Below are positions 1,346 through 61,996 of a stretch of DNA of 64,000 nucleotides, piece by piece. The translations under genes were made by a program, and so were the position numbers. The notes below the pieces were generated by a model. It had not been told where the DNA came from. It searched no databases and was given only the letters and a program-made list of their open reading frames with translations. Every line of letters starts with the position of its first letter. Position 1 is the stretch's first letter. Source of the stretch: a virus; IMG/VR virus record IMGVR_UViG_3300046534_001281, positions 7,814 through 71,813 of that record; one strand, 5' to 3'.

Positions 1346-1346
1346 T

Positions 1347-7415: not shown

Positions 7416-7416
7416 A

Positions 7417-19240: not shown

Positions 19241-20131
19241 ATGGAAAAATTATTCGAGAGCCTATTCAGCGACCAAGAGGGTGTGTTTTCTGAATCTACC
19301 CAAAAATCTATTATGGAGGCATTCGATGCCAAAGTATTAGTAGTAGCCGAAGAAAGATCCATTCTCGCAACCGAAGCTATGGATAAGAGCCATACTATCA
19401 TGTTACAGCAACTTGTAGAAAGTCACAATACAAAGCTTAAGACTGAATTGAAATCTCTTGAAGAGTCAATTGATACCGAGCATACAGAAAAGGTTGAAAA
19501 CCTTTTTGTTAAGCTTGATGAAGATCGTGCCCACAAATTACAAGGGGTTAAAGATTACTACGAAGGTCTGCTTAATGAGTCTGTTAAGACCGAGAGTGAT
19601 GTTCTGGTCGAAGCTGTTGATAAGTTTCTTGATACATGGTTGGAAGAAAAAGTTCCTACTGAGTTTCTAGAGGAAGCGGCTAAGAAAGATTATAGCCAAG
19701 ACCTTCTTAAGAAGATTTCAAACCTAGTTGGTATTAATGAGTCGGTTGATTCTGATATCAGAGAAGGTCTTACGGATGCCCGCAATCTTATTGATCGCCA
19801 AAGCAAGATTATCGACGATCTTAAAAAGGATAACTTCCTTCGTGAATCTACTAACAAACTTCCAGTGCTTGAAAAACAGCAAATTATGGAAAGCTTCGAA
19901 GGACACGACTTTGAATTTACTAAAAGGAATTTTAGTTTTCAACAAAAACAAATCTCTAAAGACAAAGAAGCTTCTGATCGTGTAGTTCAGGAACAAACTT
20001 CTAGTCAAAATGTTGATCAATCCCGAGTGCTTAATGAGCAAGTAGGGGTGGATAAAGAAGAGGAACCTAAATCTGTGTTGGCGGGTTGGGCAGAAATGTT
20101 AAATAGCGGTTACGGTGTTTACGGACGTTAA
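19241..20131 (+). CDS. gp22: prohead scaffold protein
   Basis: Helical, acidic; VDKFLDTWLEE; many LxE|S sites; immediately upstream of gp23. Confidence 0.8.
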   Translation: MEKLFESLFSDQEGVFSESTQKSIMEAFDAKVLVVAEERSILATEAMDKSHTIMLQQLVESHNTKLKTELKSLEESIDTEHTEKVENLFVKLDEDRAHKLQGVKDYYEGLLNESVKTESDVLVEAVDKFLDTWLEEKVPTEFLEEAAKKDYSQDLLKKISNLVGINESVDSDIREGLTDARNLIDRQSKIIDDLKKDNFLRESTNKLPVLEKQQIMESFEGHDFEFTKRNFSFQQKQISKDKEASDRVVQEQTSSQNVDQSRVLNEQVGVDKEEEPKSVLAGWAEMLNSGYGVYGR

Positions 20132-20172: not shown

Positions 20173-21720
20173 ATGAATGCATATGATATCGACCTCACCT
20201 CGAAGCAACGCGAGGAAAGAGTCCTAAAGACATGGCAACCTCTTCTTGAATCCACAGATACAACTCTTCGTGGTTTCAAGAATACCAAACAGGCTGTCCA
20301 AACCGCTGTTCTCTTAGAGAATCAGTACCGCCACATGGCACAGAACCCAGATACTTATGGTGCTCTCCCTACCCTTAATCAGGTTATCGGAGAATCCCTT
20401 AATACTCAAGGAACTTTCCATGCGTATGGTAATGGTGATGCTGCTTTTGGAGCAACACTTAATCAGCCAGTAAATGGCCAGTATGGTAATACTGTTTCCC
20501 CTACCAATAATGACTTCTATGCAAGAGGTGATGCTCGTCTTCCGAACGTGGTTATGCCAATGATTCGCAGAACGTTCCCAGAACTACTTGCTAATGAGAT
20601 TGTTGGAGTTCAGCCTATGTCTTCCCCCGTTGGAATGGCGTTTGCTCTTCGCTTCCAATATGATTCTGAGTCACTTGCTGATTTCTCTCCTGACGGCGGG
20701 AACACTGCTAACAGTGCCCCTCCTGCTTATAGAACTGCTAGTAATGGTGTTGAAGCATCACACAACCATCTTAACACTGCGTTCACCGGAACATTGAATG
20801 CCGATCTCGACGGTATCGAAGCTGGTGTATCTCAAGCTAACGGTGTTGATACTGATACTGCTGACTTTGCATACCCTGCACAAGATCAAGGTGTCGCTCG
20901 TCTACTCGCAGATGTTGAACTTACTACTGATATTCCTCAGATGAGTCTCACCATCGAAAAGACCGCAGTTGAAGCCGGTTCTCGTAAACTTGCTGTTAAG
21001 TTCTCTTTGGAACTTGAGCAAGATCTTCAGAACATGCACTCAATCTCGGTTGATGATGAAATGACTAACATGATGTCTTATGAATTGCAAGCTGAAATTG
21101 ATCGCGAGCTTCTTATGAGAATTATCAAGTCCACTCTTTCGGCTGGACCAGAACGTGGTTACACAATCTGGAATCCTGCTAATGCAGATGGTCGTTGGTC
21201 CGCAGAACGTTCGGTTAACTTGTGGCAAGCAATTCGTGTTCAATCACGTTTGGTTGGTCTTCGTAACAGACGTGGAGCTGCCAACTTCGCAGTTGTAACT
21301 CCTTATGTTGCGGCTATCCTTGAAACTCTTCCTAACTTCAAAGCTTTCGAGATTGATGCAAACGTTGAGCAAGTATTCGGTAACTCTCGCGCAGGAACTC
21401 TTGGAGCACTTAAGGTGTTCGTTGATACCCGCTCTGAGTCTCAGTATCAGTCCGCTATCCGTGATACCCGTGTTGACTATATCCTTCTTGGTTATAAAGG
21501 CGCAGATACAGGTGATTGTGGTTTGGTTTATCTCCCTTACATCCCAGTTCAGGTGCAACGCACTATGGCTGCGAATGATTTCGGACAGAGAATCGGCCTA
21601 TCCACTAGATATGCTATCGCCGCAAATTTGAACGGGTCTAGCAATTATTACCATATGATAATAATGAAAGGGCTTACTGACGGTATCGATGGAACCGAAA
21701 CTAAGCAATTTGCTTGGTAA
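20173..21720 (+). CDS. gp23: major capsid protein
   Basis: LLENQ, RRTFPELLANEIVGVQPM, SRKL..ELEQDL, EIDRE, LGYKG, YLPYIP, TRY. Confidence 0.97.
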   Translation: MNAYDIDLTSKQREERVLKTWQPLLESTDTTLRGFKNTKQAVQTAVLLENQYRHMAQNPDTYGALPTLNQVIGESLNTQGTFHAYGNGDAAFGATLNQPVNGQYGNTVSPTNNDFYARGDARLPNVVMPMIRRTFPELLANEIVGVQPMSSPVGMAFALRFQYDSESLADFSPDGGNTANSAPPAYRTASNGVEASHNHLNTAFTGTLNADLDGIEAGVSQANGVDTDTADFAYPAQDQGVARLLADVELTTDIPQMSLTIEKTAVEAGSRKLAVKFSLELEQDLQNMHSISVDDEMTNMMSYELQAEIDRELLMRIIKSTLSAGPERGYTIWNPANADGRWSAERSVNLWQAIRVQSRLVGLRNRRGAANFAVVTPYVAAILETLPNFKAFEIDANVEQVFGNSRAGTLGALKVFVDTRSESQYQSAIRDTRVDYILLGYKGADTGDCGLVYLPYIPVQVQRTMAANDFGQRIGLSTRYAIAANLNGSSNYYHMIIMKGLTDGIDGTETKQFAW

Positions 21721-49232: not shown

Positions 49233-49250
49233 ATTTTATCATAACACCGA

Positions 49251-49287
49251 GAATTCCCTTCAGGCTGAGTGGTCTGGAGGGAATTTT
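49251..49287. terminator. intrinsic terminator
   Basis: GAATTCCCTTCAGGC...GTCTGGAGGGAATTTT between convergent genes. Confidence 0.7.
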
Positions 49288-49313
49288 CATTTACTCGAAG
49301 GATCGAAATCGAC

Positions 49314-49973
49314 TTAATTGAGCGGATCGAAAATAACTAAACCTCCGGCGCTGTCAAAACCAAAATTTTCTTCATGGATGTCGTTTTGAGCCACCCCTTT
49401 AATCCCCATTATGGTCTGTCCAAACTCCACCACTTGGGCATATGTCCTACCATACTCCCGAAACAACGCATCTAACTCTTCAATTAAACCCCTATCTTCC
49501 GCAAAACTATCCCCTCTCATGATGTCATGAACAATTTCCTGTAAGTCCATAACTTTAGTGATAGATAATAATTCCCTACCAAATTCATAGTTACGGTCCT
49601 CATCCACCACTAGACGCTCCATAACATATAGTTCAACCTCCTCATCAAGAGAAAGACTTGCGTGTTTTAATATACGAGGGAATAAAGGATTTGATAAACT
49701 CTGCTCCTTGGAAGCAAATGTTTTGAATAGCGGATCATCAAAAGCTAGCTTAACAACATAACCGCCAGATGAACCACTATACACATCAGCAAAACTACCT
49801 CCACCGATCCATTTACCGCCAAGCTTCGTTATATATTCCGAAGCCTTATCCTTCCACTCTGAAGCACTATCAGAACTAAAACGACTCATATCAGTTAAAT
49901 CCTTAATGATCTTATTGGCCAGTGAAAGTCGCTCCTCAATCACAGTTTCGTAATAATCTTTGAATTCACCCAT
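49314..49973 (-). CDS. T7 gp0.7-like protein kinase 1 with CTS-like N-terminus
   Basis: GGGSFADVY, YVVK, YVMERL, DIHEEN, IFDP; TAAATA-N5-ATG at 49973. Confidence 0.8.
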   Translation of the reverse strand: MGEFKDYYETVIEERLSLANKIIKDLTDMSRFSSDSASEWKDKASEYITKLGGKWIGGGSFADVYSGSSGGYVVKLAFDDPLFKTFASKEQSLSNPLFPRILKHASLSLDEEVELYVMERLVVDEDRNYEFGRELLSITKVMDLQEIVHDIMRGDSFAEDRGLIEELDALFREYGRTYAQVVEFGQTIMGIKGVAQNDIHEENFGFDSAGGLVIFDPLN

Positions 49974-50175
49974 ATAACTATTTACCCCAAACAAACACCC
50001 AGATCGAAAAGCGTCAAATCCAGATATATTACAAAGAATCTCCGAAAATGACCCTAGCTGAGATTCACCAAGATTTAAACCACTTCAAGCAAGATGAAGA
50101 AAAAACTGGATTTATGGGATTTAGTTAAAGAAAGATCTTGATTTAAAACCAAAATGGGGTTAAGATCGCCTCGTT

Positions 50176-50724
50176 ATGAAAAACTCCATCACCGCAAACG
50201 AAGAGATCCAAAACTTCATCAAAGATCTTCGCGAAAAGACTGCACTTATTAGCAACATCCACATTTGCCCTGTTTCTAGCTCCGCATCATTTAGCGGTGG
50301 TTACACCCGTATCAATATTGAATTTTACCGCAAGGGTCAACGTTCAAAAGATTTCCGATCATGGGTTTCGGTTGACAAAGACGGGAAGTGGCAAGCTAAA
50401 CTCGAAGCTAAACTCGAATTAGCTAAAATTGAGCTTGACAAAGAGTTTGAACTTCGTGCTGCCCGTGAAAAGGCTATAAATGACAAAAAGGCTAAAATTG
50501 TTACCCTTGTAACCAAATATGGCACACGTTTGGTTGAGTTGGGTGTGTGGTCTTCCATTGAAGCTAGGGGGCCTTCTCGGCACCACAAGTCTAAGATTGA
50601 GGTGCAGGAGTTGTCTTCTGGTGGTCATATTTTAGTATTTCTTGGAAAGAAATTTCCAATCGACAAGTTGGAAGAATTGGCACAGGCAGAGGCAACCGTC
50701 AATGATATTCTTGAAAAGATTTAA
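50176..50724 (+). CDS. early hypothetical protein
   Basis: Early promoter GTT-ATG. Confidence 0.65.
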   Translation: MKNSITANEEIQNFIKDLREKTALISNIHICPVSSSASFSGGYTRINIEFYRKGQRSKDFRSWVSVDKDGKWQAKLEAKLELAKIELDKEFELRAAREKAINDKKAKIVTLVTKYGTRLVELGVWSSIEARGPSRHHKSKIEVQELSSGGHILVFLGKKFPIDKLEELAQAEATVNDILEKI

Positions 50725-50748
50725 AGGAAAATATATCCCCTTTACTTT

Positions 50749-50778
50749 GACAAGGTAACTAAAATGGGTTACCTTGTC
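50749..50778 (+). promoter_or_regulatory. palindromic early promoter cassette
   Basis: GACAAGGTAACT-aaaatg-GGTTACCTTGTC followed by TTCGTT-ATG (31-aa ORF 50785-50880). Confidence 0.75.
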
Positions 50779-50936
50779 TTCGTTATGAAAAACAAAGAAG
50801 CAATCGCAGTCATCATCGCAGAAGGGCGGAAGTCATTCACCGACCCTAAATTAGCTTCAGAAGCGGAACCATCATACTGATGCTGCCAGTCTTCGTGCAA
50901 TGCTTTAAACTTGCACGAGTTAGATTAAATAATACT

Positions 50937-51242
50937 ATGGACAGCACAAAAGCCAAAAAACTAATCAAAGATAATGGTGGCTCTGTATTTAAGACAGAAG
51001 ATGGATGGAGTGCAAGGCTCGCCACTTCAGATGAGTATGAACTTTTCACAGACCGCGAATTGATCAAGGTTGCTAGAGATTACTATACTTCGGAAAACAT
51101 CCGAAGCTATAAAAAATACGTTAAACAATTCGGAAGAAGGAAAAACCGCAGAGCCACTAGGGATGCTATCGCCCACGAAAACTTCGAGTCTATTCCCCCA
51201 AATAAACGGACCAAAGATGAGGATGTCTGGGGCTGGGATTAA
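50937..51242 (+). CDS. basic late hypothetical protein
   Basis: TAAATA-N5-ATG at 50937. Confidence 0.55.
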   Translation: MDSTKAKKLIKDNGGSVFKTEDGWSARLATSDEYELFTDRELIKVARDYYTSENIRSYKKYVKQFGRRKNRRATRDAIAHENFESIPPNKRTKDEDVWGWD

Positions 51243-51880
51243 GAAATCGGGTCGAATATAACCAGACCACCTTCGTTATCAAATCCGAAGTTTCCGCCAT
51301 GTGCATCATTTCTGGTGTTTCCGACTATCTTACTCAGATGCATTGCAAAGTCTCTCAAATCATCATAGCTCCGGTTCACCTGTTTTAAAACAGCATCAAC
51401 CTTATCGATTTGATCTCGGTAAAGATGTCCACCTTCAGCCAAACGAGATATGATGCCCTTTAAATCCATACCAATCTCTTCTTTAAGAGTGTCGATCAAT
51501 TTATAATTGAAGTCACGGTCAACCTTCAACCTCTGGATAATATAAACACCGATTGTTGTTGTGTCGATTTTGTATTGTTTTCCGTGTAGGATTTTAGGGA
51601 AGATTGGGTTAGCTATACCGCCAATACCTTCAAAGAATTGGTGGTAACGTCTATCGTCTTCAGATATCCTAACAACATAACCACCTGTCTTGCCGCCATA
51701 GACATCAGCAAAAATTCCACTGTCAATGTGTTCACCTTTACTAGACAGCAATCCCTCCATTTGTTTTATAAATTCTGCCACATTAGATTGGTCTAGATTG
51801 TCAATCTCTTCTACAATATGGCTTGCTATGTCAAGCCTTTCCTCTACTAGATTTTGATAATATGTCTTGAAAGAACCCAT
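51239..51880 (-). CDS. T7 gp0.7-like protein kinase 2 (Lys-to-Arg variant) with CTS-like N-terminus
   Basis: SGIFADVY, YVVR, DAHGGN, IFDP; TAATTA-N6-ATG. Confidence 0.75.
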   Translation of the reverse strand: MGSFKTYYQNLVEERLDIASHIVEEIDNLDQSNVAEFIKQMEGLLSSKGEHIDSGIFADVYGGKTGGYVVRISEDDRRYHQFFEGIGGIANPIFPKILHGKQYKIDTTTIGVYIIQRLKVDRDFNYKLIDTLKEEIGMDLKGIISRLAEGGHLYRDQIDKVDAVLKQVNRSYDDLRDFAMHLSKIVGNTRNDAHGGNFGFDNEGGLVIFDPIS

Positions 51881-52094
51881 AGTAAGTAATTACTTGAATT
51901 TTGTTTCAAATTCCCTTGACTAGTGACACAACCCAGAATACTATAAGAATATACCTTACCCCAGTAAGCGGAAAATTTAGTCAAAATAATGTAGGTAGTC
52001 TTTTATACAAAGAAACCTGATTATTTTAACAAAAAGAGACAAATAAAATACCCGTAATACTAGGGGGTGGTTACATCAGGCCAAAACAAATAAA

Positions 52095-52355
52095 ATGAAT
52101 AATACAGTGAACTATAACCCGAAGAAAACGAATGCATACACCCATCATTGTGGTGACTTGTTTGAGGATCGCAGAGATGGAGAAATCTACATATTGATTA
52201 ACTATTTCTTTGAGGCTAAACGCTTATACGGATTGTTCTGTCTTGAAGATGGCACAGTTTACGATGATGGACTGGAGCTAGTAAATGGACTACTCCCCTC
52301 CGAGGCTGTGGAAGATCTAAACCACCTTGGAAAAAGACATATCGAAATATCCTGA
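52095..52355 (+). CDS. small hypothetical protein
   Basis: ORF after a long leader. Confidence 0.55.
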   Translation: MNNTVNYNPKKTNAYTHHCGDLFEDRRDGEIYILINYFFEAKRLYGLFCLEDGTVYDDGLELVNGLLPSEAVEDLNHLGKRHIEIS

Positions 52356-52437
52356 CATTCCCTTAAATCTACACTAGAATAACTTCGATATGATTACAGT
52401 AACACCCAAAGAATTAAGAACTGTAGTGGTTTAAAGT

Positions 52438-53097
52438 ATGAGTATATTAATACCTTGGAGTGGCGGATTGGATTCGACCAAGCTGCTCATTGATGCATTG
52501 GCTGCTGGCCATACCGTCTATCCAGTCTATTTTGAATGTAAAAACAACGTTGCCAAAACCAAGAAGGAAAAGTCGGCAATCAAAAAGATCCACAAGTCTT
52601 TGATGAAACGTTATAAAGATACGCTCACGGATATCAAGTTCCCCGTAACTATATTTCTGAACGTATGCACGGAAGAGGTAACCTTGAAGCAACCTCCACT
52701 CTGGGTGTTGGGCATCATCTACTCAATCACTAAAGATATAGATGAAGTTCATATCGGTTATGTTCAGAACGACTGCGCCGTCTCTTGGATACAGGAAATC
52801 AAAAAGCTTTACCAATCTTACAAGCCGTTCACTTCCCTCAAGAAACTACCGAAACTAAAGTTTCCCCTTATTAAAGAATACAAGAATAGTATCTGGAAAT
52901 CATTAGAACATTATGACTTCGAGAGGCAGAACACTCATTTCTGTGAATATGGCGCGGATTGCGGGGAATGCGAACCTTGTAAGAGATACAAATATGATGG
53001 GTTGTTTGAAGTTTATAATAGGAACAAACCCTTAGCCTCAGCCATTAATTCAGTAGATCATTTAAACCCGATAGAAGAAACAATACAAATACCTTGA
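52438..53097 (+). CDS. queC: QueC-like PP-loop ATPase (7-cyano-7-deazaguanine synthase family)
   Basis: WSGGLDST; C-term FCE..CGECEPC Zn motif. Confidence 0.7.
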   Translation: MSILIPWSGGLDSTKLLIDALAAGHTVYPVYFECKNNVAKTKKEKSAIKKIHKSLMKRYKDTLTDIKFPVTIFLNVCTEEVTLKQPPLWVLGIIYSITKDIDEVHIGYVQNDCAVSWIQEIKKLYQSYKPFTSLKKLPKLKFPLIKEYKNSIWKSLEHYDFERQNTHFCEYGADCGECEPCKRYKYDGLFEVYNRNKPLASAINSVDHLNPIEETIQIP

Positions 53098-53351
53098 AAA
53101 ACCAAATAACAATTCAATTCCCAACAGAAGAACACGCCAAACGATTCGCTAGTTGGCTATGTAATGCAGGTGAACAAGATTACTATGAAGATATGTATGA
53201 ACAAAACCACAGACAACCTATCGAAGAAGTCAACCTATGTTATCATGGGGTAGAAGATACTGAGCTTGCCTTAAATGATGCCAAGCGTTATGGTAAATTC
53301 ATGGAAGATGGTATCGTCCGCGCCATCGGTAGAGAAAATCCCGTCTGGTAG
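53094..53351 (+). CDS. small conserved phage protein
   Basis: F.SWLCNAGEQDY. Confidence 0.6.
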   Translation: MKNQITIQFPTEEHAKRFASWLCNAGEQDYYEDMYEQNHRQPIEEVNLCYHGVEDTELALNDAKRYGKFMEDGIVRAIGRENPVW

Positions 53352-53365
53352 AAATAATTGAGCCG

Positions 53366-54106
53366 TTAACCTAATTTGGTTTGCCACTCATTCATTATAT
53401 CGTGAAACTCTTGTGTTGTCTTTGTGGTCCTGTAAGGAATGCTATCAACCTTTAGGCGACTTGTTATCTGTGAAAACTTACGTTCCGACTCAACATATTG
53501 CCAATTCACAATAGCCTCAACAACCTCATAGTTATCAACGACAACCTCATTGTATCCATATGCGGAGTCAATGAAAATGTCATGAGATGAGTAGAACTTG
53601 GATATGTTGTTCAAGAACCATGCCTCTAATGCTTTGATGTATTGATTCACATCCTTGGAACCGTCCACTATACTTTTCAAGTCGGTCTTATCTTCGATAT
53701 CCAGCCTACTATTCTTAAGAATGGTGGTAATAGGTATCCATCGCAAACCACCATTATCGGGTAGTGAACCCATATCACTCCTTCTACCAAAGAGTGCTCG
53801 CCCTTTCAAGATTAAAGCATTGCCCATACTCTGAACACCAAGAAAATTCTTTTCAAAGCTTGTGGTTGTGGATAGTTGTCTCCTTCTGGTGTTCTGACTA
53901 TCCAACACATTTATAAGACCATCCGAATCTGTGAAGTGCGCAACCAACATTGGATGGAACCAACCCAAGGCTTTTGACACAGTAGGGGTAAGCGGTAAAT
54001 TTATAGATTCCTCTTTTGAGAGATCAACAGCAGATCTTTGCCATTTAGCACTAATCTTACTTTTCTCCAAAATAAGGTCATCGTAATACTGCTTAAAGCT
54101 GGTCAT
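53366..54106 (-). CDS. putative internal head protein, ADP-ribosyltransferase-like
   Basis: TATAAATA-N5-ATG; MTSFKQYYDDLILE; AHFT, LSTT, YNEVVV. Confidence 0.5.
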   Translation of the reverse strand: MTSFKQYYDDLILEKSKISAKWQRSAVDLSKEESINLPLTPTVSKALGWFHPMLVAHFTDSDGLINVLDSQNTRRRQLSTTTSFEKNFLGVQSMGNALILKGRALFGRRSDMGSLPDNGGLRWIPITTILKNSRLDIEDKTDLKSIVDGSKDVNQYIKALEAWFLNNISKFYSSHDIFIDSAYGYNEVVVDNYEVVEAIVNWQYVESERKFSQITSRLKVDSIPYRTTKTTQEFHDIMNEWQTKLG

Positions 54107-54201
54107 ATCTTTATTTATACTAAACTCATTGACTACTAGGTTCTCGTTGTTTTAATAACTTAGTTGTATTGTTGTATTGTTTCTGTTAGCATAACGGGAC
54201 A

Positions 54202-54804
54202 ATGAACCCATTCAGAATTACCCTATTCGATGTTGAAACCACAGGATTTCTTAATAAAGACAATCGACTTGTTCAATTCGCAGCACACTCTTTGATGTTG
54301 CACCCTACCAACTTCCAAGCTTTCACGGTGCAGGAATTCTCATCTCTTGTGAAATGTGATATTCCCGTTCCAGACAGAGCCAGATCGATTCATGGAATAT
54401 CACAAGCAATGACTAGATTTGGTGTAGATGAAAAATCAATCTGCCGATGGTTCAATAATGCTTGTAATACTTCAGATTATATGGTGGCTCACAACTATAG
54501 TTTTGACCACAATTTCATGGAGGAAGTCTTCACAAGAAACAAACTCATCTTTCCAGACATTAAGAACAAGATCTGCACAATGAGAGAATCCGCCGAGTTC
54601 TGTCAGATACCCAAGAACAACAACATAACAGGTTACAAACACCCAAAGCTAATTGAACTACACCAACATCTGTTTAATGAAGGATTTGATGGAGCACACG
54701 ATGCCCTTGTAGATGTCAAGGCCACTAAGAGATGTTTGGTTGAGTTAATCGCCCAAGGCGTTATAAAACTCAACCATACCGAAGACTTACTCAGTAACAT
54801 CTAG
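54202..54804 (+). CDS. DEDDh 3'-5' exonuclease (DnaQ-like)
   Basis: FDVETTG, VAHNYSFD, AHDALVDV. Confidence 0.92.
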   Translation: MNPFRITLFDVETTGFLNKDNRLVQFAAHSLMLHPTNFQAFTVQEFSSLVKCDIPVPDRARSIHGISQAMTRFGVDEKSICRWFNNACNTSDYMVAHNYSFDHNFMEEVFTRNKLIFPDIKNKICTMRESAEFCQIPKNNNITGYKHPKLIELHQHLFNEGFDGAHDALVDVKATKRCLVELIAQGVIKLNHTEDLLSNI

Positions 54805-54835
54805 TCAGAATTAAAGCAATCAAATCTTTGTGAAG

Positions 54836-55498
54836 TTAAGAGATCGGATCGAAAAACACCAATCCACCAGAAGAGTCCAAACCAAAGTTTTCATGATGCA
54901 GGTCATTCTCATGATGACCGGTGATCTTGAAAAATAATCTGGCGAAATCATAGAATTCATCAAAAGTTCTATTATACTTCTCAAAGAATGCATCGATCTG
55001 ATCCTGTTTACCAAGAGACAGGTAATAGTATTGTTTCTTCAGTATATTCTCTATAAAATCTTCGAACCCATACTGTGATCCGGTTATATCCTCAAGCTCT
55101 CCAAGAATTGCCAAGTTTCGATTTTCGCTAACAACAAGACGCTCCAGAACATAGATGTCCATCATACGCTCCAACTGAATAGAGCGATGTTCCACTATCT
55201 TTGGAAGGAATGGATTATCATCGCCTTGAATCCCTTTATAGAATTTTCTAAATGCGGTATCGTTATTGGCAATCTTCACAACATAACCACCAGATTCACC
55301 ACCATAGACAGAAGAGAAGAAACCTTTACCTAAAAACTTACCACCCGCCTCCTTCAATATTGCTTCGGCTTGATCCATGAATTCATATTCGTGGTCTGTT
55401 TGTATATTGGATAGTTCATCGGCAATAGCAGTTGCAATGGATCGCTTTTCTAGTAAGGTGGAAAGTTGTTGATCTACAAATGATTCGAATTTACTCAT
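54836..55498 (-). CDS. T7 gp0.7-like protein kinase 3 with CTS-like N-terminus
   Basis: GKGFFSSVY, YVVK, YVLERL, DLHHEN, FFDP; TAATTA-N5-ATG at 55498. Confidence 0.8.
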   Translation of the reverse strand: MSKFESFVDQQLSTLLEKRSIATAIADELSNIQTDHEYEFMDQAEAILKEAGGKFLGKGFFSSVYGGESGGYVVKIANNDTAFRKFYKGIQGDDNPFLPKIVEHRSIQLERMMDIYVLERLVVSENRNLAILGELEDITGSQYGFEDFIENILKKQYYYLSLGKQDQIDAFFEKYNRTFDEFYDFARLFFKITGHHENDLHHENFGLDSSGGLVFFDPIS

Positions 55499-55609
55499 AA
55501 TATTAATTATCCAATCGAGGCAATGGTTCAAGGATGGTAGACTTAAACTAATTTCAGATTTAATGCAGAAAGATCTTGACGTTAATCCAAATCTAGGCTA
55601 GTATTCGGC

Positions 55610-55771
55610 ATGTCCAACCTCACCGACACAATCGCATCAGAGTCATCACCAATGGATGCAGAATACGCAATAGGTATTCTGGCCCAAAATGGAATTGAGG
55701 CATTTAAAGAATGTCTGGAAACTTTTGCGGCACCCTCCGTTGTATGTGCAATCCTAAAACTTGTAAAATGA
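55610..55771 (+). CDS. 53-aa early protein
   Basis: Leaderless ATG after TTGACG..TAGTAT; ATGA-coupled to the Nudix gene. Confidence 0.5.
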   Translation: MSNLTDTIASESSPMDAEYAIGILAQNGIEAFKECLETFAAPSVVCAILKLVK

Positions 55772-56145
55772 AGACTTTTGCAGTATTCGTAGTAGCTCTA
55801 ACCGAGAGCGGAAACTGGGCAGCAACAACCCGACCTAATGGCGGTATTGGTCTTGCTGGCGGAAAACTCGACGATGGAGAAACCCCACAAGAAGCTGCTA
55901 TTCGAGAAGCATACGAGGAGGGTTGGGTAATTTGTCCCGATAGCCTAATACTCATCCATGAGCAAGAAGTAGACGGAAAACCTGTGGAATATTATGTCTC
56001 AACCAAAACTGCCGTGATGCTGAAGGTTTGGAAGGAACAGGACAGACTGATGCCTGTTGCTGTTGATTACTACCAATTGTTGAATAGCGGGTTCGGTAAT
56101 GAGAATGCAATGCCGAAAGCAAAACTCAAACTTGAAGAATTATGA
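55768..56145 (+). CDS. Nudix hydrolase
   Basis: GGKLDDGETPQEAAIREAYEEG. Confidence 0.88.
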   Translation: MKTFAVFVVALTESGNWAATTRPNGGIGLAGGKLDDGETPQEAAIREAYEEGWVICPDSLILIHEQEVDGKPVEYYVSTKTAVMLKVWKEQDRLMPVAVDYYQLLNSGFGNENAMPKAKLKLEEL

Positions 56146-56378
56146 TTTACACTAAACAAGGCAAGGAGATTCGCCCTAGACACGGATTAACGTTGGAAGC
56201 TGGGTGTATGGTTTTTCGGGATAATAAGTGGGAAACCCTCAAAAGCGACCACATTGTCGTTATTACAACTCGTCGAGATGGATTATGCCAGTCGGTAGAG
56301 CGGGAAATCGAAATAAAAATGAAATAGATGCAGAAAGATCTTGACCCAAACTCAGTTTCGGGTTAAGGTCTTCTCGTT

Positions 56379-57089
56379 ATGAAAAATAAAGCGACCCACA
56401 ACGGAACCTGCCAGTGCTGCGGAAACTCACAAGCTGTTTCACCATTACTTAGTAACCACGGTTACACTGTAGATTTCGGTTACTTCAACGGAACCTGCCG
56501 TGGAGCCAATGCACAGCCACTGGAGGAGAGTAGAGACCTTAGCGACAAACTTGTCCTTGAACTCCGCAACGAAGCCAAAAGGCTTGCAGCGTTGACCAGC
56601 GAGAACATCAAGTCAATCACAATCAAGGTTAGCAACAACCGCTTCCGCCATGCTCGCATCGAAGCGACCGAAACGGTAAGCTCACAAGAAGAGATCAACC
56701 TTCTCTGCGAAACCCACGAACATTCCGAACTGTTCGAAGCCAATTACGGGGAAAACAGCTACCATGCGAAATATAGCGGGAACAACTTCGCAGATAAATC
56801 CAAGGCTCAACTAGAACTGTTTCACCGCCAATCTGGGTTGATGAAAGAACATGCCGAAACAATGTATGAAAGAGCAAACCTCACCACCGGCAAGAAAGCT
56901 CTTGAGCCAAGAGCAAAATCAAAGGACAAGGTTCGATTCAACATCCCTAACCGCAGGAGGCATCCAATCGACGCAAAAGCGGGTTGGGATCGTGTTGAAG
57001 CAATGAAAGAGTCTGGTGAATTCCTTCGTGTTACCACTCGTCGCGAGCGATACAACAACTCTTACAACGCTGTTGCAACTCCAAAGTAA
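56379..57089 (+). CDS. early Zn-finger-like phage protein
   Basis: GTCQCCG..HGY..GTCRG; early promoter GTT-ATG. Confidence 0.65.
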   Translation: MKNKATHNGTCQCCGNSQAVSPLLSNHGYTVDFGYFNGTCRGANAQPLEESRDLSDKLVLELRNEAKRLAALTSENIKSITIKVSNNRFRHARIEATETVSSQEEINLLCETHEHSELFEANYGENSYHAKYSGNNFADKSKAQLELFHRQSGLMKEHAETMYERANLTTGKKALEPRAKSKDKVRFNIPNRRRHPIDAKAGWDRVEAMKESGEFLRVTTRRERYNNSYNAVATPK

Positions 57090-57101
57090 AACTTAAACAA
57101 T

Positions 57102-57137
57102 AAAGAACCCCCTAATCATAAATTAGGGGGTTCTTTT
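57102..57137. terminator. bidirectional intrinsic terminator
   Basis: AAAGAACCCCCTAAT-cataa-ATTAGGGGGTTCTTTT. Confidence 0.9.
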
Positions 57138-57165
57138 GTTGACACCGTTAGTATAACTCAAGTCG

Positions 57166-57858
57166 TTAGAAGGATATCGGATCAAAGATAATCAAATGAC
57201 CATCCTTGTTAAAACCAAAGTTTGCACTGTGGACATCAAGGCTATCGGACTTGGTGGTTTTCCGTAATATCTCAACAAATTCCATGAGCTGTTCCAAGGT
57301 TCTGCCGTGCTGTCTCAGAACATTGTCAAAATTGCTCAATTGCTCCTCCGATAATATGTCTCTTAGGACAGCATCAATGATATCAATCAAAGTGAAATCA
57401 TCACTACGCATTTCTTTTCCCCACACCGATTGAGACGCCTTTCGTAGGAACTGCATATTAGATGATGCAGTGCTTTTAAAGTCAACCTTTAAACGTTCTA
57501 AAACATAGATGTCAATCATTAAATATTCGCTGTGCTCCAAAACAATATGTTTCTCTATCTTAGGAAACAGAGGATTGTCATATTTACCCATGTTCAAAAA
57601 GAACTGACGACCCGTGCGATCATTAACAGCAACCTTAACAACATAACCACCGCTGTCACTACCATACACATTAGCAAAATTACCCTTACCCAAATTCTCA
57701 CCACCGTGATCTTCCATTATATCGCTAACAACGGCATCAACATCATCTTTGGTTAACTCCTTGTCTGATTGCAAACTATCGCGAATCTCCGTAGCAATAG
57801 CGCCAGCAATAGATCTGCGTTCTTCTAATATTTGTTGGTAGTAATCTTTAAACCTCAT
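57166..57858 (-). CDS. T7 gp0.7-like protein kinase 4 with CTS-like N-terminus
   Basis: GKGNFANVY, YVVK, YVLERL, DVHSAN, IFDPISF; TAAATA-N5-ATG. Confidence 0.8.
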   Translation of the reverse strand: MRFKDYYQQILEERRSIAGAIATEIRDSLQSDKELTKDDVDAVVSDIMEDHGGENLGKGNFANVYGSDSGGYVVKVAVNDRTGRQFFLNMGKYDNPLFPKIEKHIVLEHSEYLMIDIYVLERLKVDFKSTASSNMQFLRKASQSVWGKEMRSDDFTLIDIIDAVLRDILSEEQLSNFDNVLRQHGRTLEQLMEFVEILRKTTKSDSLDVHSANFGFNKDGHLIIFDPISF

Positions 57859-57881
57859 TATTCTATTTAATAATTACCTTC

Positions 57882-58385: not shown

Positions 58386-58393
58386 ATAGAATC

Positions 58394-58987
58394 ATGGGTA
58401 AATTCAAAGAGTTCTTCAAGGAACAATATCAGACAACAACAGTTCAAGATATCATAGATAACCTGAAGGAGGAACAAGATGACGAATGGTTCGACGAAGA
58501 TAATGGTATAGAAGAGTTTATACAAAATGTAAGCGAATCTGAATTGGAAGAAGCATTCCCAAATATCTATTCTGATTACTTCGGTGATCCATCAAAATAC
58601 AAAGGAACGGTGTATCATCACACAACAGAGGATAACAAACAGTCTATATTAACACAGGGTATACAACCATCCGATATAACCAGAGGTATATCCAATCGTT
58701 CCACAGGATCAGCAACATTCACATCAGCCGAGATTGATGAAAGCGAATCTTATGGTAATGTCATATTTGAAATAGATCTAGAAAAGGCAATAGAAATCAA
58801 CCCCGATATAACCACAGGACTGGAACCACCTATTGAAGATTCAATCAGAAGGAAGAATCTTGCTAACATATTAGAAGTGGAAGATCAAGGACAATTTGAA
58901 CCAGACTCATCAGATGGATTAAGGGAAGATACATTGGTTGTATATGGGCATATACCAAGAGAGGCAATAGAGTTGCTTGAGTTTTAA
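58394..58987 (+). CDS. putative internal head protein, ART-fold (Tpt1/DarT-like H-type)
   Basis: MGKFKEFFKE; VYHHT..ILTQGIQP, FTS, YG..FEID, GHIPREAI. Confidence 0.6.
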   Translation: MGKFKEFFKEQYQTTTVQDIIDNLKEEQDDEWFDEDNGIEEFIQNVSESELEEAFPNIYSDYFGDPSKYKGTVYHHTTEDNKQSILTQGIQPSDITRGISNRSTGSATFTSAEIDESESYGNVIFEIDLEKAIEINPDITTGLEPPIEDSIRRKNLANILEVEDQGQFEPDSSDGLREDTLVVYGHIPREAIELLEF

Positions 58988-59042
58988 CATAAGGAGAACA
59001 GCCCAATAGACCTTGGGTTATCATTAAGTATAAAATAAGAAC

Positions 59043-59528
59043 ATGAAACAATTCGATACATTTATTAAATCTATATTACAGGAGTGGGTATTACCTAGTG
59101 GTGAGATGAAAACTTTGAAACAACTGCGTGAAACTTCCGGTTCATTATACACCCGAACAGTAACGGGGGAGAACACTGTGGAACATTGGAACAAAGAACT
59201 ACCCGCATTCATAGAGAAGATGTATGAAGAGCGAGGTATTCGAGTCACAGAGGAGGAGAACGGTGTTCGCATCCATGATGGATTTAATCGCTTTGTTCGA
59301 AAACCTTTATTTGACGAGACCCCCATAGACCTCGAAGTCTATTTTGATCGTGACGGCACATTCAAAACCGTGATCGATGATAAAATATTTCATGGCCCTA
59401 AGATTACAAGGGGTGATCTAACTGGTGACGGGTTTAGTGTCAGAGGTAATGGTAATACTTTGGTGTATAAACTGAAGAACTTAGAACCCAAACCTGAGCC
59501 TGTAAAAAAAGGTGAGTGGTGGGAATAA
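59043..59528 (+). CDS. putative internal head protein
   Basis: MKQFDTFIKSILQE; AAAATA-N5-ATG. Confidence 0.55.
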   Translation: MKQFDTFIKSILQEWVLPSGEMKTLKQLRETSGSLYTRTVTGENTVEHWNKELPAFIEKMYEERGIRVTEEENGVRIHDGFNRFVRKPLFDETPIDLEVYFDRDGTFKTVIDDKIFHGPKITRGDLTGDGFSVRGNGNTLVYKLKNLEPKPEPVKKGEWWE

Positions 59529-59616
59529 AGGATATATTACAACAATATTTATAGGGATGCCATATGAGGCAATAGAGTTGCTTGAGTTTTAACATAAGGG
59601 AACAATAAATAATAAT

Positions 59617-60111
59617 ATGGCTGAGGAAAACGATTGGATTAATATAGTTAGTGACGAGTTTAGAACTTGGTTTAACGAAACCTATAAGGATAAGCTCAAC
59701 TATAAAGAGGTTCAGTTGAAGAACGAACCTTTCGTCGGTTTCGAGTTCACAGATGCATCCACTGCACCATGGAGTGTGCAATCCACCAGTGCAATAACTG
59801 GCTATGACACTGAGCGAAAACTAGAATTTGATTCTGCGTTCCCAAACGACGACGATTCATATAATCTAGCAACGGTTATGGTTAGAAAGAAATGGGAACC
59901 GCATCCATTGGGAGACTTCAAGTCGTTCGAACCTATTGAACCCAACTTGATGGAAGGTCAGGCAAAACCAAAACTGAAAGCATTCATAGCACAGTTGATA
60001 TATGACAACAGAGAAACTATGTTGGAATATGGTAGAGATGCCCTTGAACTGTTCAAAGAGAGGCTTTCTCCAAACATAGACGAATATATAAGAACAAACA
60101 CCACGGACTAG
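59617..60111 (+). CDS. late hypothetical protein
   Basis: TAAATA-N5-ATG. Confidence 0.6.
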   Translation: MAEENDWINIVSDEFRTWFNETYKDKLNYKEVQLKNEPFVGFEFTDASTAPWSVQSTSAITGYDTERKLEFDSAFPNDDDSYNLATVMVRKKWEPHPLGDFKSFEPIEPNLMEGQAKPKLKAFIAQLIYDNRETMLEYGRDALELFKERLSPNIDEYIRTNTTD

Positions 60112-60159
60112 TTTAAAGATATACTCTAATATAAGATCACTTTAAAGTTAAATAATAAC

Positions 60160-60522
60160 ATGGGCAAATTCAAAACATTCCTAGAAGACTATAGACCAAG
60201 ACGTAGTAAGTATGCCAAGTGGACTGATATCAATGGTAAGCCTCTACCTATGAATAGGCATAAGCTTAACGATTACCTAACCCAAGATTCCTATATCAGG
60301 AGAACAAAGGACGGTGAGGAATATCACACACCATTCATACCTACCGATGGTTTATTAACCAAGGCTGATTTACAAAACATCGGAGACGAGGTTTTCTACA
60401 AGTATCTCAACGATGAACAGATAGAGCAGGTTAACCAGCACTGGTTGGAAAATTATGGAGTGACATATGAAGTAGACTATCCACCATCATCCCTTGGTTA
60501 TGAATTAGAGGATAGAATTTAA
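60160..60522 (+). CDS. putative internal head protein
   Basis: MGKFKTFLE; TAAATA-N5-ATG. Confidence 0.6.
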   Translation: MGKFKTFLEDYRPRRSKYAKWTDINGKPLPMNRHKLNDYLTQDSYIRRTKDGEEYHTPFIPTDGLLTKADLQNIGDEVFYKYLNDEQIEQVNQHWLENYGVTYEVDYPPSSLGYELEDRI

Positions 60523-60535
60523 GGTAAATAGAATC

Positions 60536-61159
60536 ATGGGCAAATTCAAAGAGTTCTTCAATGAACAACGACAGACATCTTATAAGATTATAGATGCAAG
60601 CGGCTCATATACTAATAGAGCAAGCCAACTGCTAAAAAATAAGGTAATGTTAGGTGCAGAAGGTAATGATCAATTCGGATATGCTCTAACATTAACACTA
60701 CCCAACCAAGAACTCAAAGATTACTTCGAAACTAATACTATTATATTGAGGAGGTATGATAAGTTCGAAGAAACAACAGAACCTAATAACAACAAACAAT
60801 ATCACCAACAATCATTAACCGATTCAACAGAGGTTGATTCTCTTGTAGCTGAATGGGTGGCATTCGCTAAACCCGATGATAAACAAAGAGCAATCCATAT
60901 TATCAACAGACAACCACAACTACAAGAGGATAACTTAGAAGAACATAAGGAACATTATGGTAATAGCGAGTATGTCAATATATATCGTGGTGGTGAACTC
61001 AACAAGGAAACAGCAGAGATCCTATCATTTACACTAGACCCCGATAAAACTACCATCTTCGGATCTAATAATAAGTTCACGGTAAAAAGAGAGGATATCT
61101 TCTGGACACTGTTTTCAATAGAGGATGAGGTTTGGGTTGACGTTAAATTCACTAAATAA
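60536..61159 (+). CDS. putative internal head protein, R-S-E type ADP-ribosyltransferase-like
   Basis: MGKFKEFFNE; IYRG, LSFT, EDEV. Confidence 0.6.
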   Translation: MGKFKEFFNEQRQTSYKIIDASGSYTNRASQLLKNKVMLGAEGNDQFGYALTLTLPNQELKDYFETNTIILRRYDKFEETTEPNNNKQYHQQSLTDSTEVDSLVAEWVAFAKPDDKQRAIHIINRQPQLQEDNLEEHKEHYGNSEYVNIYRGGELNKETAEILSFTLDPDKTTIFGSNNKFTVKREDIFWTLFSIEDEVWVDVKFTK

Positions 61160-61208
61160 GGTCTTGACTTGGGAATTTATTAATAAACGTGTAAGGGTAA
61201 ATAAGAAC

Positions 61209-61571
61209 ATGACCAAGTTTGATACACTGCTACTAGAAATAACCAAAAAACAAATGAATGCAATTGATGCTAAATGGAGGAAGGGTAAACAGGAACTCGC
61301 AGACACCATTGCTAAACATGAAAGAGGCGAGTATGAACATTCCGCAGAGTATATCAACAAGTATGGTATTAAGAGGGATTGGCTCATTGCTTATAAGCTT
61401 ACCAATATAACCCCTGACGACGATGGTCCTAATAGATATAACTGGGATGCATACTCTAAAGACCAGAAGCATGGTAATGATAGAGTGTTGAAAGATGCAA
61501 CAACAGAAGAAGCCAAAGCATTTGCAAAAGAGAATGGACTTGAGGTTAAGCCATCAAGCATTCTGTTTTAA
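61209..61571 (+). CDS. putative internal head protein
   Basis: MTKFDTLLLE; TAAATA-N5-ATG at 61209. Confidence 0.6.
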   Translation: MTKFDTLLLEITKKQMNAIDAKWRKGKQELADTIAKHERGEYEHSAEYINKYGIKRDWLIAYKLTNITPDDDGPNRYNWDAYSKDQKHGNDRVLKDATTEEAKAFAKENGLEVKPSSILF

Positions 61572-61588
61572 CAAGTATAAATAGAATC

Positions 61589-61996
61589 ATGGGCAAATTC
61601 AAGGAGTTCTTCAATGAACAACAAGCAAGAGTCGGTGTTCATATTAATGATAAGGTTGTTCCTTGGACAGATTGGATATTAGATGGAACCAAAACTATAG
61701 AGACTCGCAATACCAATTCCCTTAAGAGTTTAATAGGACATAGAGTTGGTATTATAAGAACTGGTGTTAAAGGCGGGGCAGCATTGGTGGGATATGTTAC
61801 AATAGGAGAACCCTTGATATATAGAACCATTGAAGATTTCAATGAGGATATAGAGAAGCATAGAGTTGATACAAACTATAAAGGATTCGAGTTTAGAGAT
61901 ATGAAGTTCGGTTATCCTATGTTAAAACCAGAAAGAATCGAACCAGTCTATGGTATACCATTCAAAGGTAATATGGTGACTCGACCTTTGATGTAA
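61589..61996 (+). CDS. ASCH-domain protein with CTS-like N-terminus
   Basis: PWTDWILDGTKTIETR, LVGYVTIG; TATAAATA-N5-ATG. Confidence 0.75.
   Translation: MGKFKEFFNEQQARVGVHINDKVVPWTDWILDGTKTIETRNTNSLKSLIGHRVGIIRTGVKGGAALVGYVTIGEPLIYRTIEDFNEDIEKHRVDTNYKGFEFRDMKFGYPMLKPERIEPVYGIPFKGNMVTRPLM

Follow-up and report, generated by a model that had tools for sequence, protein, structure and literature searches.

The window considered here is the whole stretch of 64,000 nucleotides that was analysed, originating from an uncultured T4-like phage from ice. It harbors four related genes, referred to as K1 to K4:

49314..49973, minus strand: K1, 219 aa, minimal kinase of the T7 gp0.7 (T7K) family with complete catalytic motifs (phrog_15752, E 4.8e-5)
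51239..51880, minus strand: K2, 213 aa, paralog with three near-invariant sites altered, a possible pseudokinase
54836..55498, minus strand: K3, 220 aa, paralog with complete catalytic motifs (phrog_15752, E 3.4e-7)
57166..57858, minus strand: K4, 230 aa, paralog; the copy modelled and aligned to T7 gp0.7 (phrog_15752, E 1.6e-9)

Open reading frames and BLASTP agree with the four minus-strand paralogs of the initial annotation, since the products recognize each other with E values of 1.3e-28 to 5.2e-49 in pairwise comparisons even after trimming of the first 18 residues. Their mutual identities are 34-38% (36-38% relative to K1, with 39 invariant columns in the alignment), and a profile of the four kinases yields exactly four matches in the 71,813-base record (five candidates scored). 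Alternative upstream TTG starts are possible for K1 and K3, and their ATG starts are those located 5 nt after the late-type motif described below. Every motif previously listed was located, namely the Gly loop, GGYVV[KR], NP.[FL]P[KR]I, Y[VI]..RL, D.H..NFG and FDP, with deviations to DSG, R and Q in K2. The region before the catalytic loop, which had been called highly variable, is the most diverged part of the proteins: mean pairwise identity is 25% in this substrate-facing helical region versus 44% in the N-lobe and 55% from the catalytic loop to the DP motif.

In searches with PHROG profiles, phrog_15752 (T7 kinase) ranks first for K1, K3, and K4; for K2 it comes second (E 0.016), since phrog_3809, whose function is unknown, scores better (0.0053). 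A Pfam-A search of the four proteins matched no kinase family. Alignment of a 105-sequence family with T7 gp0.7 by hhalign covers 146 columns, beginning at the Gly loop and ending at DP (98.2%, E 3.9e-14), in accord with the earlier assignment as T7-gp0.7-like. As judged from this comparison, K1 to K4 and the kinase domain of T7 gp0.7 are homologous. Six residues are invariant in all 105 family sequences (G59, P99, D208, N213, D226, and P227) and two further ones are kept in 101 of them (K75 and E121); K1, K3, and K4 retain the complete set.

The sequences immediately upstream of the kinase genes show a common motif:

49979..49984, minus strand: late-type motif TAAATA, 5 nt before the ATG of K1
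51887..51892, minus strand: late-type motif TAATTA, 6 nt before the ATG of K2
55504..55509, minus strand: late-type motif TAATTA, 5 nt before the ATG of K3
57864..57869, minus strand: late-type motif TAAATA, 5 nt before the ATG of K4

In 25 of the 118 gene calls, the motif TAA[AT]TA precedes the ATG by exactly 5 nt, compared with a genome frequency of 0.001 per position. The 27 late-type and 19 early-type genes do not overlap, none of the 19 carrying TAA[AT]TA, and the late-type set includes the genes for the portal, the prohead protease, and the scaffold candidate together with K1 to K4. A related sequence, (T)ATAAATA, precedes the T4 late genes 22, 24, alt, and inh. The plus-strand genes flanking the kinases (starting at 48039, 50176, and 56379) show the early-type upstream pattern. 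At the level of motifs, the claim that kinase genes with late promoters are placed on the minus strand among plus-strand early genes is thus borne out for all four copies, although TAA[AT]TA-N5-ATG, instead of being a promoter, could act as a signal for translation. A gp55 homolog was not found in the record, which is uninformative because the record is 32% complete. The relevant head genes and a possible terminator are as follows:

13294..15357, minus strand: portal protein, with the late-type motif upstream
15413..16087, plus strand: gp21-type prohead protease (phrog_207, E 5.9e-46; 30% identity to T4 gp21 over 148 aa, E 9e-15)
19241..20131, plus strand: gp22-like scaffold candidate, acidic and just upstream of the major capsid gene, proposed from position and composition only
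20173..21720, plus strand: gp23-type major capsid protein (28% identity to T4 gp23, E 1e-41)
57102..57136: terminator-like hairpin with a 16-bp stem, located where the K4 gene and the plus-strand gene 56379-57089 converge

The scaffold candidate gave no family match in the profile search; its 296 aa contain 17 [ILV]xE sites, which corresponds to 5.7 per 100 aa versus a background of 2.0.

The N-termini of the kinases and of several other late gene products share a further feature, which resembles the capsid-targeting sequence (CTS) of T4:

49932..49973, minus strand: CTS-like leader of K1, 14 aa, F4 and Y7, ending V-I-E-E, then R
51839..51880, minus strand: CTS-like leader of K2, 14 aa, F4 and Y7, ending L-V-E-E, then R
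55448..55498, minus strand: CTS-like leader of K3, 17 aa, F4 and F7, ending L-L-E, then K
57820..57858, minus strand: CTS-like leader of K4, 13 aa and one residue shorter, F3 and Y6, ending I-L-E-E, then R
53366..54106, minus strand: late non-kinase gene, the fifth minus-strand one amid the kinases, with the same leader type and a weak ADP-ribosyltransferase-like lead
27642-28367 and 28376-29044, plus strand: two adjacent late genes with the leader M-P-K-F-K-E-F-Y..[IL]-K-E, mutually related and unrelated to the kinases
58394..61996, plus strand: block with four leader-bearing late genes (58394-58987, 60160-60522, 60536-61159, and 61589-61996) starting M-G-K-F-K-

The leaders of K1 to K4 match the T4 CTS in having two aromatic residues three apart, followed by hydrophobic-x-Glu; the T4 ipI, ipII, and ipIII products start with M-K-T-[FY]-[KQ]-E-F. 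According to the genetic data on the T4 CTS, residues 4 and 7 are responsible for targeting, processing depends on residues 8 and 10, and gp21 is described to cleave after L/I-X-E (PMC9026906). The pattern ^M.{0,2}[FY][KQE].[FY] occurs in 11 of the 118 genes, all 11 of which are late-type (Fisher 1.4e-8), and hydrophobic-x-E ends at residues 9-17 in 11/11 of these versus 28/107 of the others (p 1.8e-6), so that N-terminal sites of this kind are common in general; both p values are post hoc, because the pattern and the spacing were derived from the same sequences. Without their leaders, the seven non-kinase proteins are unrelated to the kinases (all BLASTP E values above 0.2). The CTS-like leaders proposed before are therefore backed both by their T4 features and by their occurrence on seven unrelated late proteins.

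A view on homologs in other phages shows that [ILVMF]xE[RKS] is present within the first 28 residues in 30 of 36 single-domain members ending in FDP, often with the Glu at residue 10, versus only 5 of 77 members of the TDP type. At three loci (L007, L009, and L010), the leader of the kinase is common to unrelated adjacent genes. Other family members contain 2-5 kinase domains per polypeptide, connected by Glu-containing linkers which could represent prohead-protease sites, and one homolog (P0067) consists of three kinase domains fused to an Acb1 anti-CBASS domain (PF23474, E 2.8e-23).

The most serious alternative to packaging, which we nevertheless regard as unlikely, is that the kinases are expressed late and stay in the cytoplasm of the producing cell, where their targets could be, for example, phage proteins or abortive-infection systems that act late. 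In this case, the common N-terminus would not be a targeting signal but a helix that duplication and recombination have spread. In the AlphaFold (AF2) model of K4, the leader indeed opens a single long helix (residues 3-30), with a pLDDT of 92 over the first ten residues, and the E-R at the leader junction is conserved across the kinase homologs. Because of this confident helix and the conserved E-R, the leader segment could belong to the structure of the mature protein. Moreover, mature K1 to K4 are acidic (pI 4.6-5.3), unlike T4 IPII and IPIII, which are basic, and this point is counted against a role as head cargo. T7K itself is described to act inside the infected cell (PMC13645617). On the other hand, the same leader is carried by proteins otherwise dissimilar to kinases, it fits the T4 determinants at positions 4, 7, and hydrophobic-x-E, and in other phages it tracks the phage rather than the kinase family.

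Packaging is further suggested by analogy with cyanophages, since virion-associated kinases have been reported by mass spectrometry for S-CRM01, S-TIM5, S-CBWM1, and S-CREM2 (PMC10665884). The S-CREM2 kinase gp14 was recovered from virions with 21 unique peptides, and that source marks or tables it as a virion protein along with gp13 and the SAM hydrolase gp6 (PMC10665884). The N-termini of all three follow the pattern x-K-x-[FL]-x-x-F-L-x-E, whereas the adjacent genes gp8, gp10, and gp11, which are not marked as virion genes there, do not have that leader; the S-CRM01 kinase g130 shares the leader of S-CREM2 gp14. A term search of the text of the S-CREM2 paper found no mention of a targeting leader (PMC10665884). 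The case for packaging of K1 to K4 is strengthened by this mass-spectrometrically verified virion kinase with the same leader type.

With packaging favored, the nature of the enzymes has to be considered. The K4 model is of high predicted quality (pLDDT 95.3, pTM 0.89) and its residues about 20-230 match kinases from the N-lobe through the DFG position, the bilobal fold, with N-lobe sheet, hinge, catalytic loop, and Mg-binding Asp, being recognizable up to there; the predicted structure is that of a protein-kinase fold ending at the DP equivalent of DFG. In BFVD, the model best matches uncharacterised phage proteins and "protein kinase" entries from T7-like phages (E 2e-8 to 1e-6, TM 0.45-0.53). 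Among the 50 VIA-align matches listed, 48 are kinases, kinase-containing complexes, or RNase L, with Mps1 as best match (Z 7.6, rmsd 4.1, 139 residues aligned). Because the top Foldseek matches in the PDB are to APH(2'')-Ia (E 6e-5), K1 to K4, whether packaged or not, may instead be envisaged as phosphotransferases of the APH/choline-kinase type that act on small molecules, an alternative that we consider improbable. It would agree with the VIA-align match to APH(2'')-IIIa (Z 5.9), with a catalytic loop containing His rather than Lys two residues past the Asp, and with the APH/ChoK-like annotation of the cyanophage virion kinases (PMC10665884). However, the matches to APH(2'')-Ia are poor (TM 0.30, rmsd about 17 A), VIA-align ranks protein kinases first, and the sequence homology is to T7K, a protein Ser/Thr kinase with the same DxHxxN and DP motifs. 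In APH, the subdomain after the DFG equivalent forms the substrate pocket. This whole subdomain is absent from K1 to K4, because the proteins end 2-4 residues past DP.

A protein kinase activity thus appears the better reading for K1, K3, and K4, whereas K2 may be catalytically inactive, as it contains DSG in place of GxG (the family has G at the first Gly-loop site in 87/105 sequences), R at the site of the beta3 Lys (K in 101/105), and Q at that of the hinge Glu (E in 101/105). That some or all copies are dead kinase-fold proteins serving as packaged binders, decoys, or structural internal head proteins would suit K2 and the homologs at loci L009 and L010, which also miss parts of the motifs, but is hardly to be expected given the intact residues of K1, K3, and K4.

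The best explanation for the whole set of features, toward which we lean by a modest degree, is that K1 to K4 are late, CTS-tagged, packaged, cleaved, and injected kinases of the T7K type with differing targets. They would represent diverged minimal T7K copies, consisting of an N-lobe, a variable helical region, the DxHxxN loop, and a terminal DP. Transcription would occur late from T4-type promoters, and because these would be so near to the ATG, the mRNAs are probably leaderless. The first 13-17 residues of each precursor would act like a T4 CTS in directing it to the scaffold core of the prohead, where the gp21-type protease may cut after hydrophobic-x-Glu at the end of the leader. The mature kinases of roughly 22-25 kDa would remain inside the head until they are delivered, together with the DNA, into the next host. 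Such a ready-made injection is probable because each kinase combines a late-gene signal with a T4-type head-loading tag at its N-terminus. Once injected, the kinases may phosphorylate host proteins before phage gene expression, with transcription and defence proteins as conceivable targets by analogy to T7K; the variable helical region would provide each copy with different targets, and K2 may be an inactive, binding-only copy. More speculatively, and with somewhat more doubt than confidence on our side, a deep-branching T4-like lineage may pre-load its capsid with diversified minimal T7K-type kinases, one perhaps a decoy pseudokinase, in an arms race over substrates. If so, only seconds would pass between injection and the phosphorylation of host proteins of defence and transcription, ahead of any phage gene expression, and the multiplicity of the kinases (four paralogs here, 2-5 domains per polypeptide and an Acb1 fusion elsewhere) would record this arms race.

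Of the known systems, T7K shares with K1 to K4 the Gly loop, the beta3 Lys, the DxHxxN catalytic loop, and the DP replacing DFG, and its kinase domain likewise stops shortly past DP. To our knowledge, T7K is not a virion protein. It is encoded by an early gene behind E. coli promoters, whereas K1 to K4 show the late-type motif in 4/4 and the early-type pattern in 0/4 cases, as far as sequence motifs tell. They also differ from T7K in occurring as four paralogs in a T4-like phage, each with a CTS-like leader, and in missing the C-terminal shut-off/DNA-binding domain, which is described as absent from jumbophage and prophage homologs of T7K as well (PMC13645617). The same source reports DPV where DFG is expected in T7K and its experimental identification as a protein Ser/Thr kinase (PMC13645617).

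The CTS cargo of T4 (IPI, IPII, IPIII, and Alt) resembles K1 to K4 in the aromatic residues three apart and the hydrophobic-x-Glu end. In both cases, unrelated cargo proteins share only the leader, and the same genome encodes a gp21-type protease and a scaffold (here a candidate). The T4 cargo comprises small restriction inhibitors and an ADP-ribosyltransferase, compared with kinases as the putative cargo here, and the kinase leaders are longer (13-17 residues versus 10 in T4), with the Glu at 13-17 versus 10 in T4 IPII and IPIII.

The initial annotation regarded an expanded, injected kinase set as not described, which is only partly right, because the S-CREM2 virion kinase and SAM hydrolase carry the same leader type. 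S-CREM2 gp14 and S-CRM01 g130 are kinase-fold enzymes of T4-like phages with M-x-x-F-x-x-F-L-x-E type leaders and leader-bearing adjacent cargo genes, as observed for K1 to K4, but they measure 755-821 aa, their full-length kinase domain belongs to another family, they occur in a single copy per phage, and they align with the K1-K4 family by hhalign only in the N-lobe (86%). A second published precedent is given by the polyvalent-protein kinase domains of Iyer et al. 2017, which are described as C-lobe-less and as retaining active-site residues; the authors predict that they reach the host together with the phage DNA and cite T7K as functional precedent (PMC5512222). By that description, they have lost the C-terminal subdomain like K1 to K4, but contain a conserved Gln in the last N-lobe strand (Glu in K1, K3, and K4, Gln in K2) and an insert in the catalytic segment, in contrast to the uninterrupted DxHxxN found here. 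They are reported mainly from huge multidomain proteins of Verrucomicrobia, Chlamydia, and Bacteroidetes (pro)phages, whereas K1 to K4 stand alone. New in the present case are the minimal T7K-type family, its four-fold expansion, and its late and tagged context.

Four minus-strand open reading frames encoding kinases of the T7 gp0.7 type (T7K) were found exactly where the initial annotation had placed them:

49314-49973, minus strand: kinase paralog K1
51239-51880, minus strand: kinase paralog K2
54836-55498, minus strand: kinase paralog K3
57166-57858, minus strand: kinase paralog K4

Their designation as paralogs holds: aligned over the full length, the proteins are 36-38% identical to K1 with 39 columns invariant, and they match one another at E-values of 1.3e-28 to 5.2e-49 after removal of their first 18 residues. 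All sequence motifs attributed to them were recovered, and the helical region preceding the catalytic loop is indeed their least conserved part (mean pairwise identity of 25%; N-lobe, 44%; catalytic loop to the end, 55%). The 71.8-kb record contains exactly four kinase genes of this family.

The proposed relationship to T7 gp0.7 is borne out at the profile level. The T7 kinase family phrog_15752 is the best PHROG match for K1, K3, and K4 and the second best for K2 (E-values of 1.6e-9 to 0.016), and the profile comparison with gp0.7 suggested in the initial annotation, performed with an alignment of 105 single-domain relatives, yielded a probability of 98.2% (E 3.9e-14, 146 columns). Residues 51-230 of K4 align to residues 68-220 of T7K, including the DxHxxN and DP motifs. 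All 105 relatives keep the Gly-loop glycine, the proline of NPxFP, both catalytic residues (Asp and Asn), and the D-P at the end, and the beta3 Lys and a hinge Glu are each present in 101 of them. An exhaustive profile search returned 690 relatives at a threshold of E<=1e-3, of which 43 reach E<=1e-10 and 10 reach E<=1e-30. A Pfam-A search with K1-K4 retrieved no kinase family, only chance matches below threshold, and K4 carries the precomputed Pfam assignment PF27024.1 in the protein database. A profile search of PDB sequences gave weak matches (best E 0.016, the matches listed being protein kinases), and a four-sequence profile reached a best E of 0.41. An AlphaFold2 model of K4 from the 105-sequence alignment (pLDDT 95.3, pTM 0.89), which replaced a mediocre one based on four sequences (pLDDT 69.2), starts with two helices, continues with an N-lobe of five strands and one helix and then four helices, and closes with the catalytic loop and a pair of short strands that stop at DP. 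Among viral models, it most resembles those of uncharacterised phage proteins and of T7-like phage entries annotated as "protein kinase". K1-K4 thus almost certainly belong to the T7K-type kinase family and fold. According to the T7K study, DPV replaces DFG in T7K, the kinase domain comprises residues 1-242, and homologs are reported from Autographiviridae, some jumbophages, and prophages (Nature 2026, PMC13645617). Neither megablast of positions 49000-58000 against the phage isolate collection nor tblastn of K4 and its homologs P0022 and P0137 against phage isolates gave any match, so that these BLAST searches revealed no homolog in a cultured phage; scans of viral contigs with the homologs P0040 and P0022 retrieved no relatives either.

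The window covers 64 kb of the 71.8-kb IMG/VR record, which is 32% complete according to CheckV. The record also encodes genes for a Dda helicase and a DNA ligase, a T4-type portal (phrog_213, E 4e-63), and a T4-type major capsid protein (phrog_138, E 2e-71). Further features are:

7840-9282: NAMPT gene
9283-10473, minus strand, and 62007-63128, plus strand: HNH/homing-endonuclease-like genes (phrog_681/559, E 4e-46 and 5e-57)
15413-16087: prohead protease of the gp21 type (phrog_207, E 5.9e-46; 30% identity to T4 gp21, E 9e-15)
19241-20131, plus strand: candidate scaffold gene

The capsid protein shares at most 31.9% identity with any of 2579 matching isolate records, the closest being T4-like cyanophages, which marks the virus, as judged from this protein, as a deep-branching T4-like phage. 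Twelve sequencing runs, all of DNA and labelled as ice metagenome, contain the window or part of it. The product of the gene that precedes the capsid gene is acidic, contains 5.7 [ILV]xE motifs per 100 residues (background 2.0), a richness expected of a gp22-like protein, and is a candidate for the scaffold. Complex prediction of this candidate with residues 1-50 of K4 scored 0.00 in a run without controls and is evidence neither way. A late gene at 18947-19189 on the minus strand encodes an 80-aa protein with a Lys/Cys-rich C-terminal tail and a stretch (..Q-P-V-N-G-E-F-G-N-S-V-D-P-T-N-N-D-F-Y-A-T-G-D-A-R-I-P..) closely resembling residues of about 98-124 of the major capsid protein (20464-20544, plus strand).

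The regions upstream of all 118 genes from a simple ORF caller were inspected, and two mutually exclusive patterns emerged, an early type (19 genes) and a late type (27 genes). The 19 early-type genes are all plus-strand and confined to the interval 31.6-56.4 kb; they show T[TGA]GA[CT] some 38 nt upstream of the ATG and GTT immediately before it; as read from the sequence, this is a sigma-70-like promoter with nearly no 5' untranslated region. The same 19 genes display a TTGAC-type -35 element, a TG-extended -10-like box, and GTT abutting the ATG (e.g., 35367, 48039, 56379). The late-type genes (e.g., 15413, 19241, 27642, 58394) carry TAA[AT]TA 5 or 6 nt before the ATG, with exactly 5 nt in 25 of 27 cases and a genome-wide background of 0.001 per position, and include those of the portal, the prohead protease, the scaffold candidate, and K1-K4. 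In T4, the late genes 22, 24, alt, and inh are preceded by (T)ATAAATA, and the late box is located about 6 nt before the transcription start; applied to this phage, the same geometry would have late transcripts begin at the start codon. TAA[AT]TA may serve as the promoter of the late-type genes, and late expression of K1-K4 appears very probable. The exact T4 late box TATAAATA was rejected as the late signal because the window contains it about as often as chance predicts (6 matches, 5.0 expected), the phage having instead the shorter TAA[AT]TA at a fixed spacing. Searching the record with T4 gp55 gave no match, which is uninformative for a 32%-complete fragment, as were generic scans of 47500-58500 for sigma-70 promoters (33 sites, 26.4 expected) and terminators (10 sites, 8.7 expected). 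Throughout the record, genes of both promoter classes have next to no 5' untranslated region and lack a Shine-Dalgarno sequence, which suggests that the mRNAs of the phage are generally leaderless or nearly so. Between K4 and the convergent gene 56379-57089, a strong hairpin with a 16-bp stem (57102-57136) is likely to act as a bidirectional terminator.

K1-K4 share an N-terminal leader with other proteins of the phage. The T4 internal protein IPI starts with M-K-T-F-K-E-F, and IPII and IPIII start with M-K-T-Y-Q-E-F-I-A-E. According to a review of Black's work (PMC9026906), a 10-residue N-terminal segment of IPIII is sufficient for packaging; in this capsid-targeting sequence (CTS), residues 4 and 7 serve targeting and residues 8 and 10 processing, and gp21 cleaves after L/I-X-E. 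A start of the form M-x(0-2)-[FY]-[KQE]-x-[FY] occurs in 11 of the 118 genes, all of the late type (Fisher 1.4e-8), and in no further six-frame ORF among 243 of at least 45 aa, and a hydrophobic-x-Glu motif ending at residue 9-17 is found in all 11 leader genes versus 28 of the 107 others, these statistics being post hoc with patterns taken from the same data. The 11 genes comprise K1-K4 and seven others, whose products are unrelated to the kinases after removal of the leader and match no Pfam family. One of these seven, at 53366-54106 on the minus strand, is interleaved with the kinase genes as a fifth late-type gene; its product belongs to no family in Pfam or PHROG and shows ESM Atlas features weakly resembling ADP-ribosyltransferases of the DarT/PARP (0.91) and Arr (0.89) types.

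Among single-domain proteins from the best 150 representatives of the 690 relatives, an FDP-type group has 36 members besides K1-K4, and 30 of these contain [ILVMF]xE[RKS] inside the first 28 residues, often with the Glu at residue 10; 14 members show the aromatic pair as well. In the TDP-type group the site is present in only 5 of 77 members. TDP-type proteins end in ..T/I-D-P and have a distinct conserved N-terminus, M-K-[IL]-x-E-L-x-x-P-K-I, which in tandem forms is repeated at the start of every domain. On three viral contigs, the N-terminus of the kinase (membership confirmed at 99.3% for loci L009 and L010) is common to unrelated neighbours and its sequence varies by phage, which fits a phage-specific address tag rather than a part of the kinase fold. 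Many relatives consist of two to five complete tandem kinase domains in one polypeptide (P0011, P0014, P0015, P0016, P0020, P0026, P0028, P0032, P0086, and others), which could be polyproteins cut to single kinases inside the head. The inter-domain linkers of P0011 (M-N-E, L-D-E, F-E-E, L-N-E) resemble the L/I-x-E sites of prohead proteases. The homolog P0067 (1769 aa) fuses three tandem kinase domains to a C-terminal Acb1 anti-CBASS domain (PF23474, E 2.8e-23), which points to an anti-defence role.

Packaging of K1-K4 is considered probable, and the best-supported explanation, towards which we lean by a modest degree, is that they are T7K-type kinases that carry a head-targeting tag and enter the host by injection. 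Alternatively, K1-K4 may be late kinases acting in the cytoplasm. They may also be small-molecule kinases: the first Foldseek rank of the K4 model is APH(2'')-Ia, but with a TM of 0.30. Protein kinases, by contrast, make up 48 of the 50 best matches in an exhaustive structural search of PDB representatives, led by Mps1 (Z 7.6, rmsd 4.1, 139 residues), with the matches always spanning the N-lobe up to DFG. As a further alternative, they may be dead binders; the catalytic set is complete in K1, K3, and K4, and K2, in which three near-invariant residues are replaced (G to D, K to R, E to Q), may be inactive. That the leader is merely part of the kinase fold is less likely, because unrelated proteins share it.

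T7K is reported to disarm many bacterial defences through pervasive phosphorylation and to require prior transcription and translation for its action (PMC13645617). If K1-K4 are injected, such ready-made kinases would act ahead of a DNA-sensing defence response, and the T4 "internal protein" strategy, built on stoichiometric inhibitors, would come to include catalytic enzymes with many targets. The leader rule, which calls for aromatics at residues 4 and 7 followed by hydrophobic-x-Glu in a gene with an upstream late promoter, is testable and, if it holds, predicts injected effectors of uncultured T4-like phages.

The initial annotation knew of no description of such kinases, which holds only in part in view of two earlier reports: mass spectrometry detected virion kinases in S-CRM01, S-TIM5, S-CBWM1, and S-CREM2 (PMC10665884, also the source for the S-CRM01 virion proteome of Dreher et al. 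2011), and Iyer et al. (2017) predicted that kinase domains without a C-lobe, located in polyvalent proteins, enter the host together with the phage DNA (PMC5512222). Virion kinases in T4-like phages are thus an already known idea. The S-CREM2 virion kinase is ORF14, identified with 21 unique peptides (PMC10665884). Leader-bearing loci are present in two of these cyanophages:

338-9347: S-CREM2 (OR473000.1)
2848-6974: S-CRM01

In the public records, the S-CREM2 kinase gp14, the SAM hydrolase gp6, and gp13, all recorded or tabled as virion proteins, start with x-K-x-[FL]-x-x-F-L-x-E, a start missing from the nearby gp8, gp10, and gp11. The S-CRM01 kinase g130, which is 32.1% identical to gp14 in agreement with the paper's statement on the virion kinase, begins in the same manner, as do the neighbouring g127 and g129. 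In both phages it resembles the T4 CTS (F/L at residue 4, F at 7, L/F at 8, E at 10). The available part of the S-CREM2 paper (PMC10665884) makes no mention of a targeting leader, the portion of the literature on capsid-targeting sequences considered here describes no CTS-tagged kinase, and nothing was found joining internal head protein, protein kinase, and bacteriophage, although the supplements of the T7K and Iyer papers may list the subfamily. The leader offers a simple explanation for the recurrence of kinases and other enzymes in cyanophage virion proteomes. The S-CREM2 and S-CRM01 kinases are large and belong to a different kinase family from K1-K4; new relative to these systems are the minimal T7K-type family in this setting, its four-fold diversified expansion with one copy likely a pseudokinase, and the explicit link between a CTS-type leader and virion kinases.
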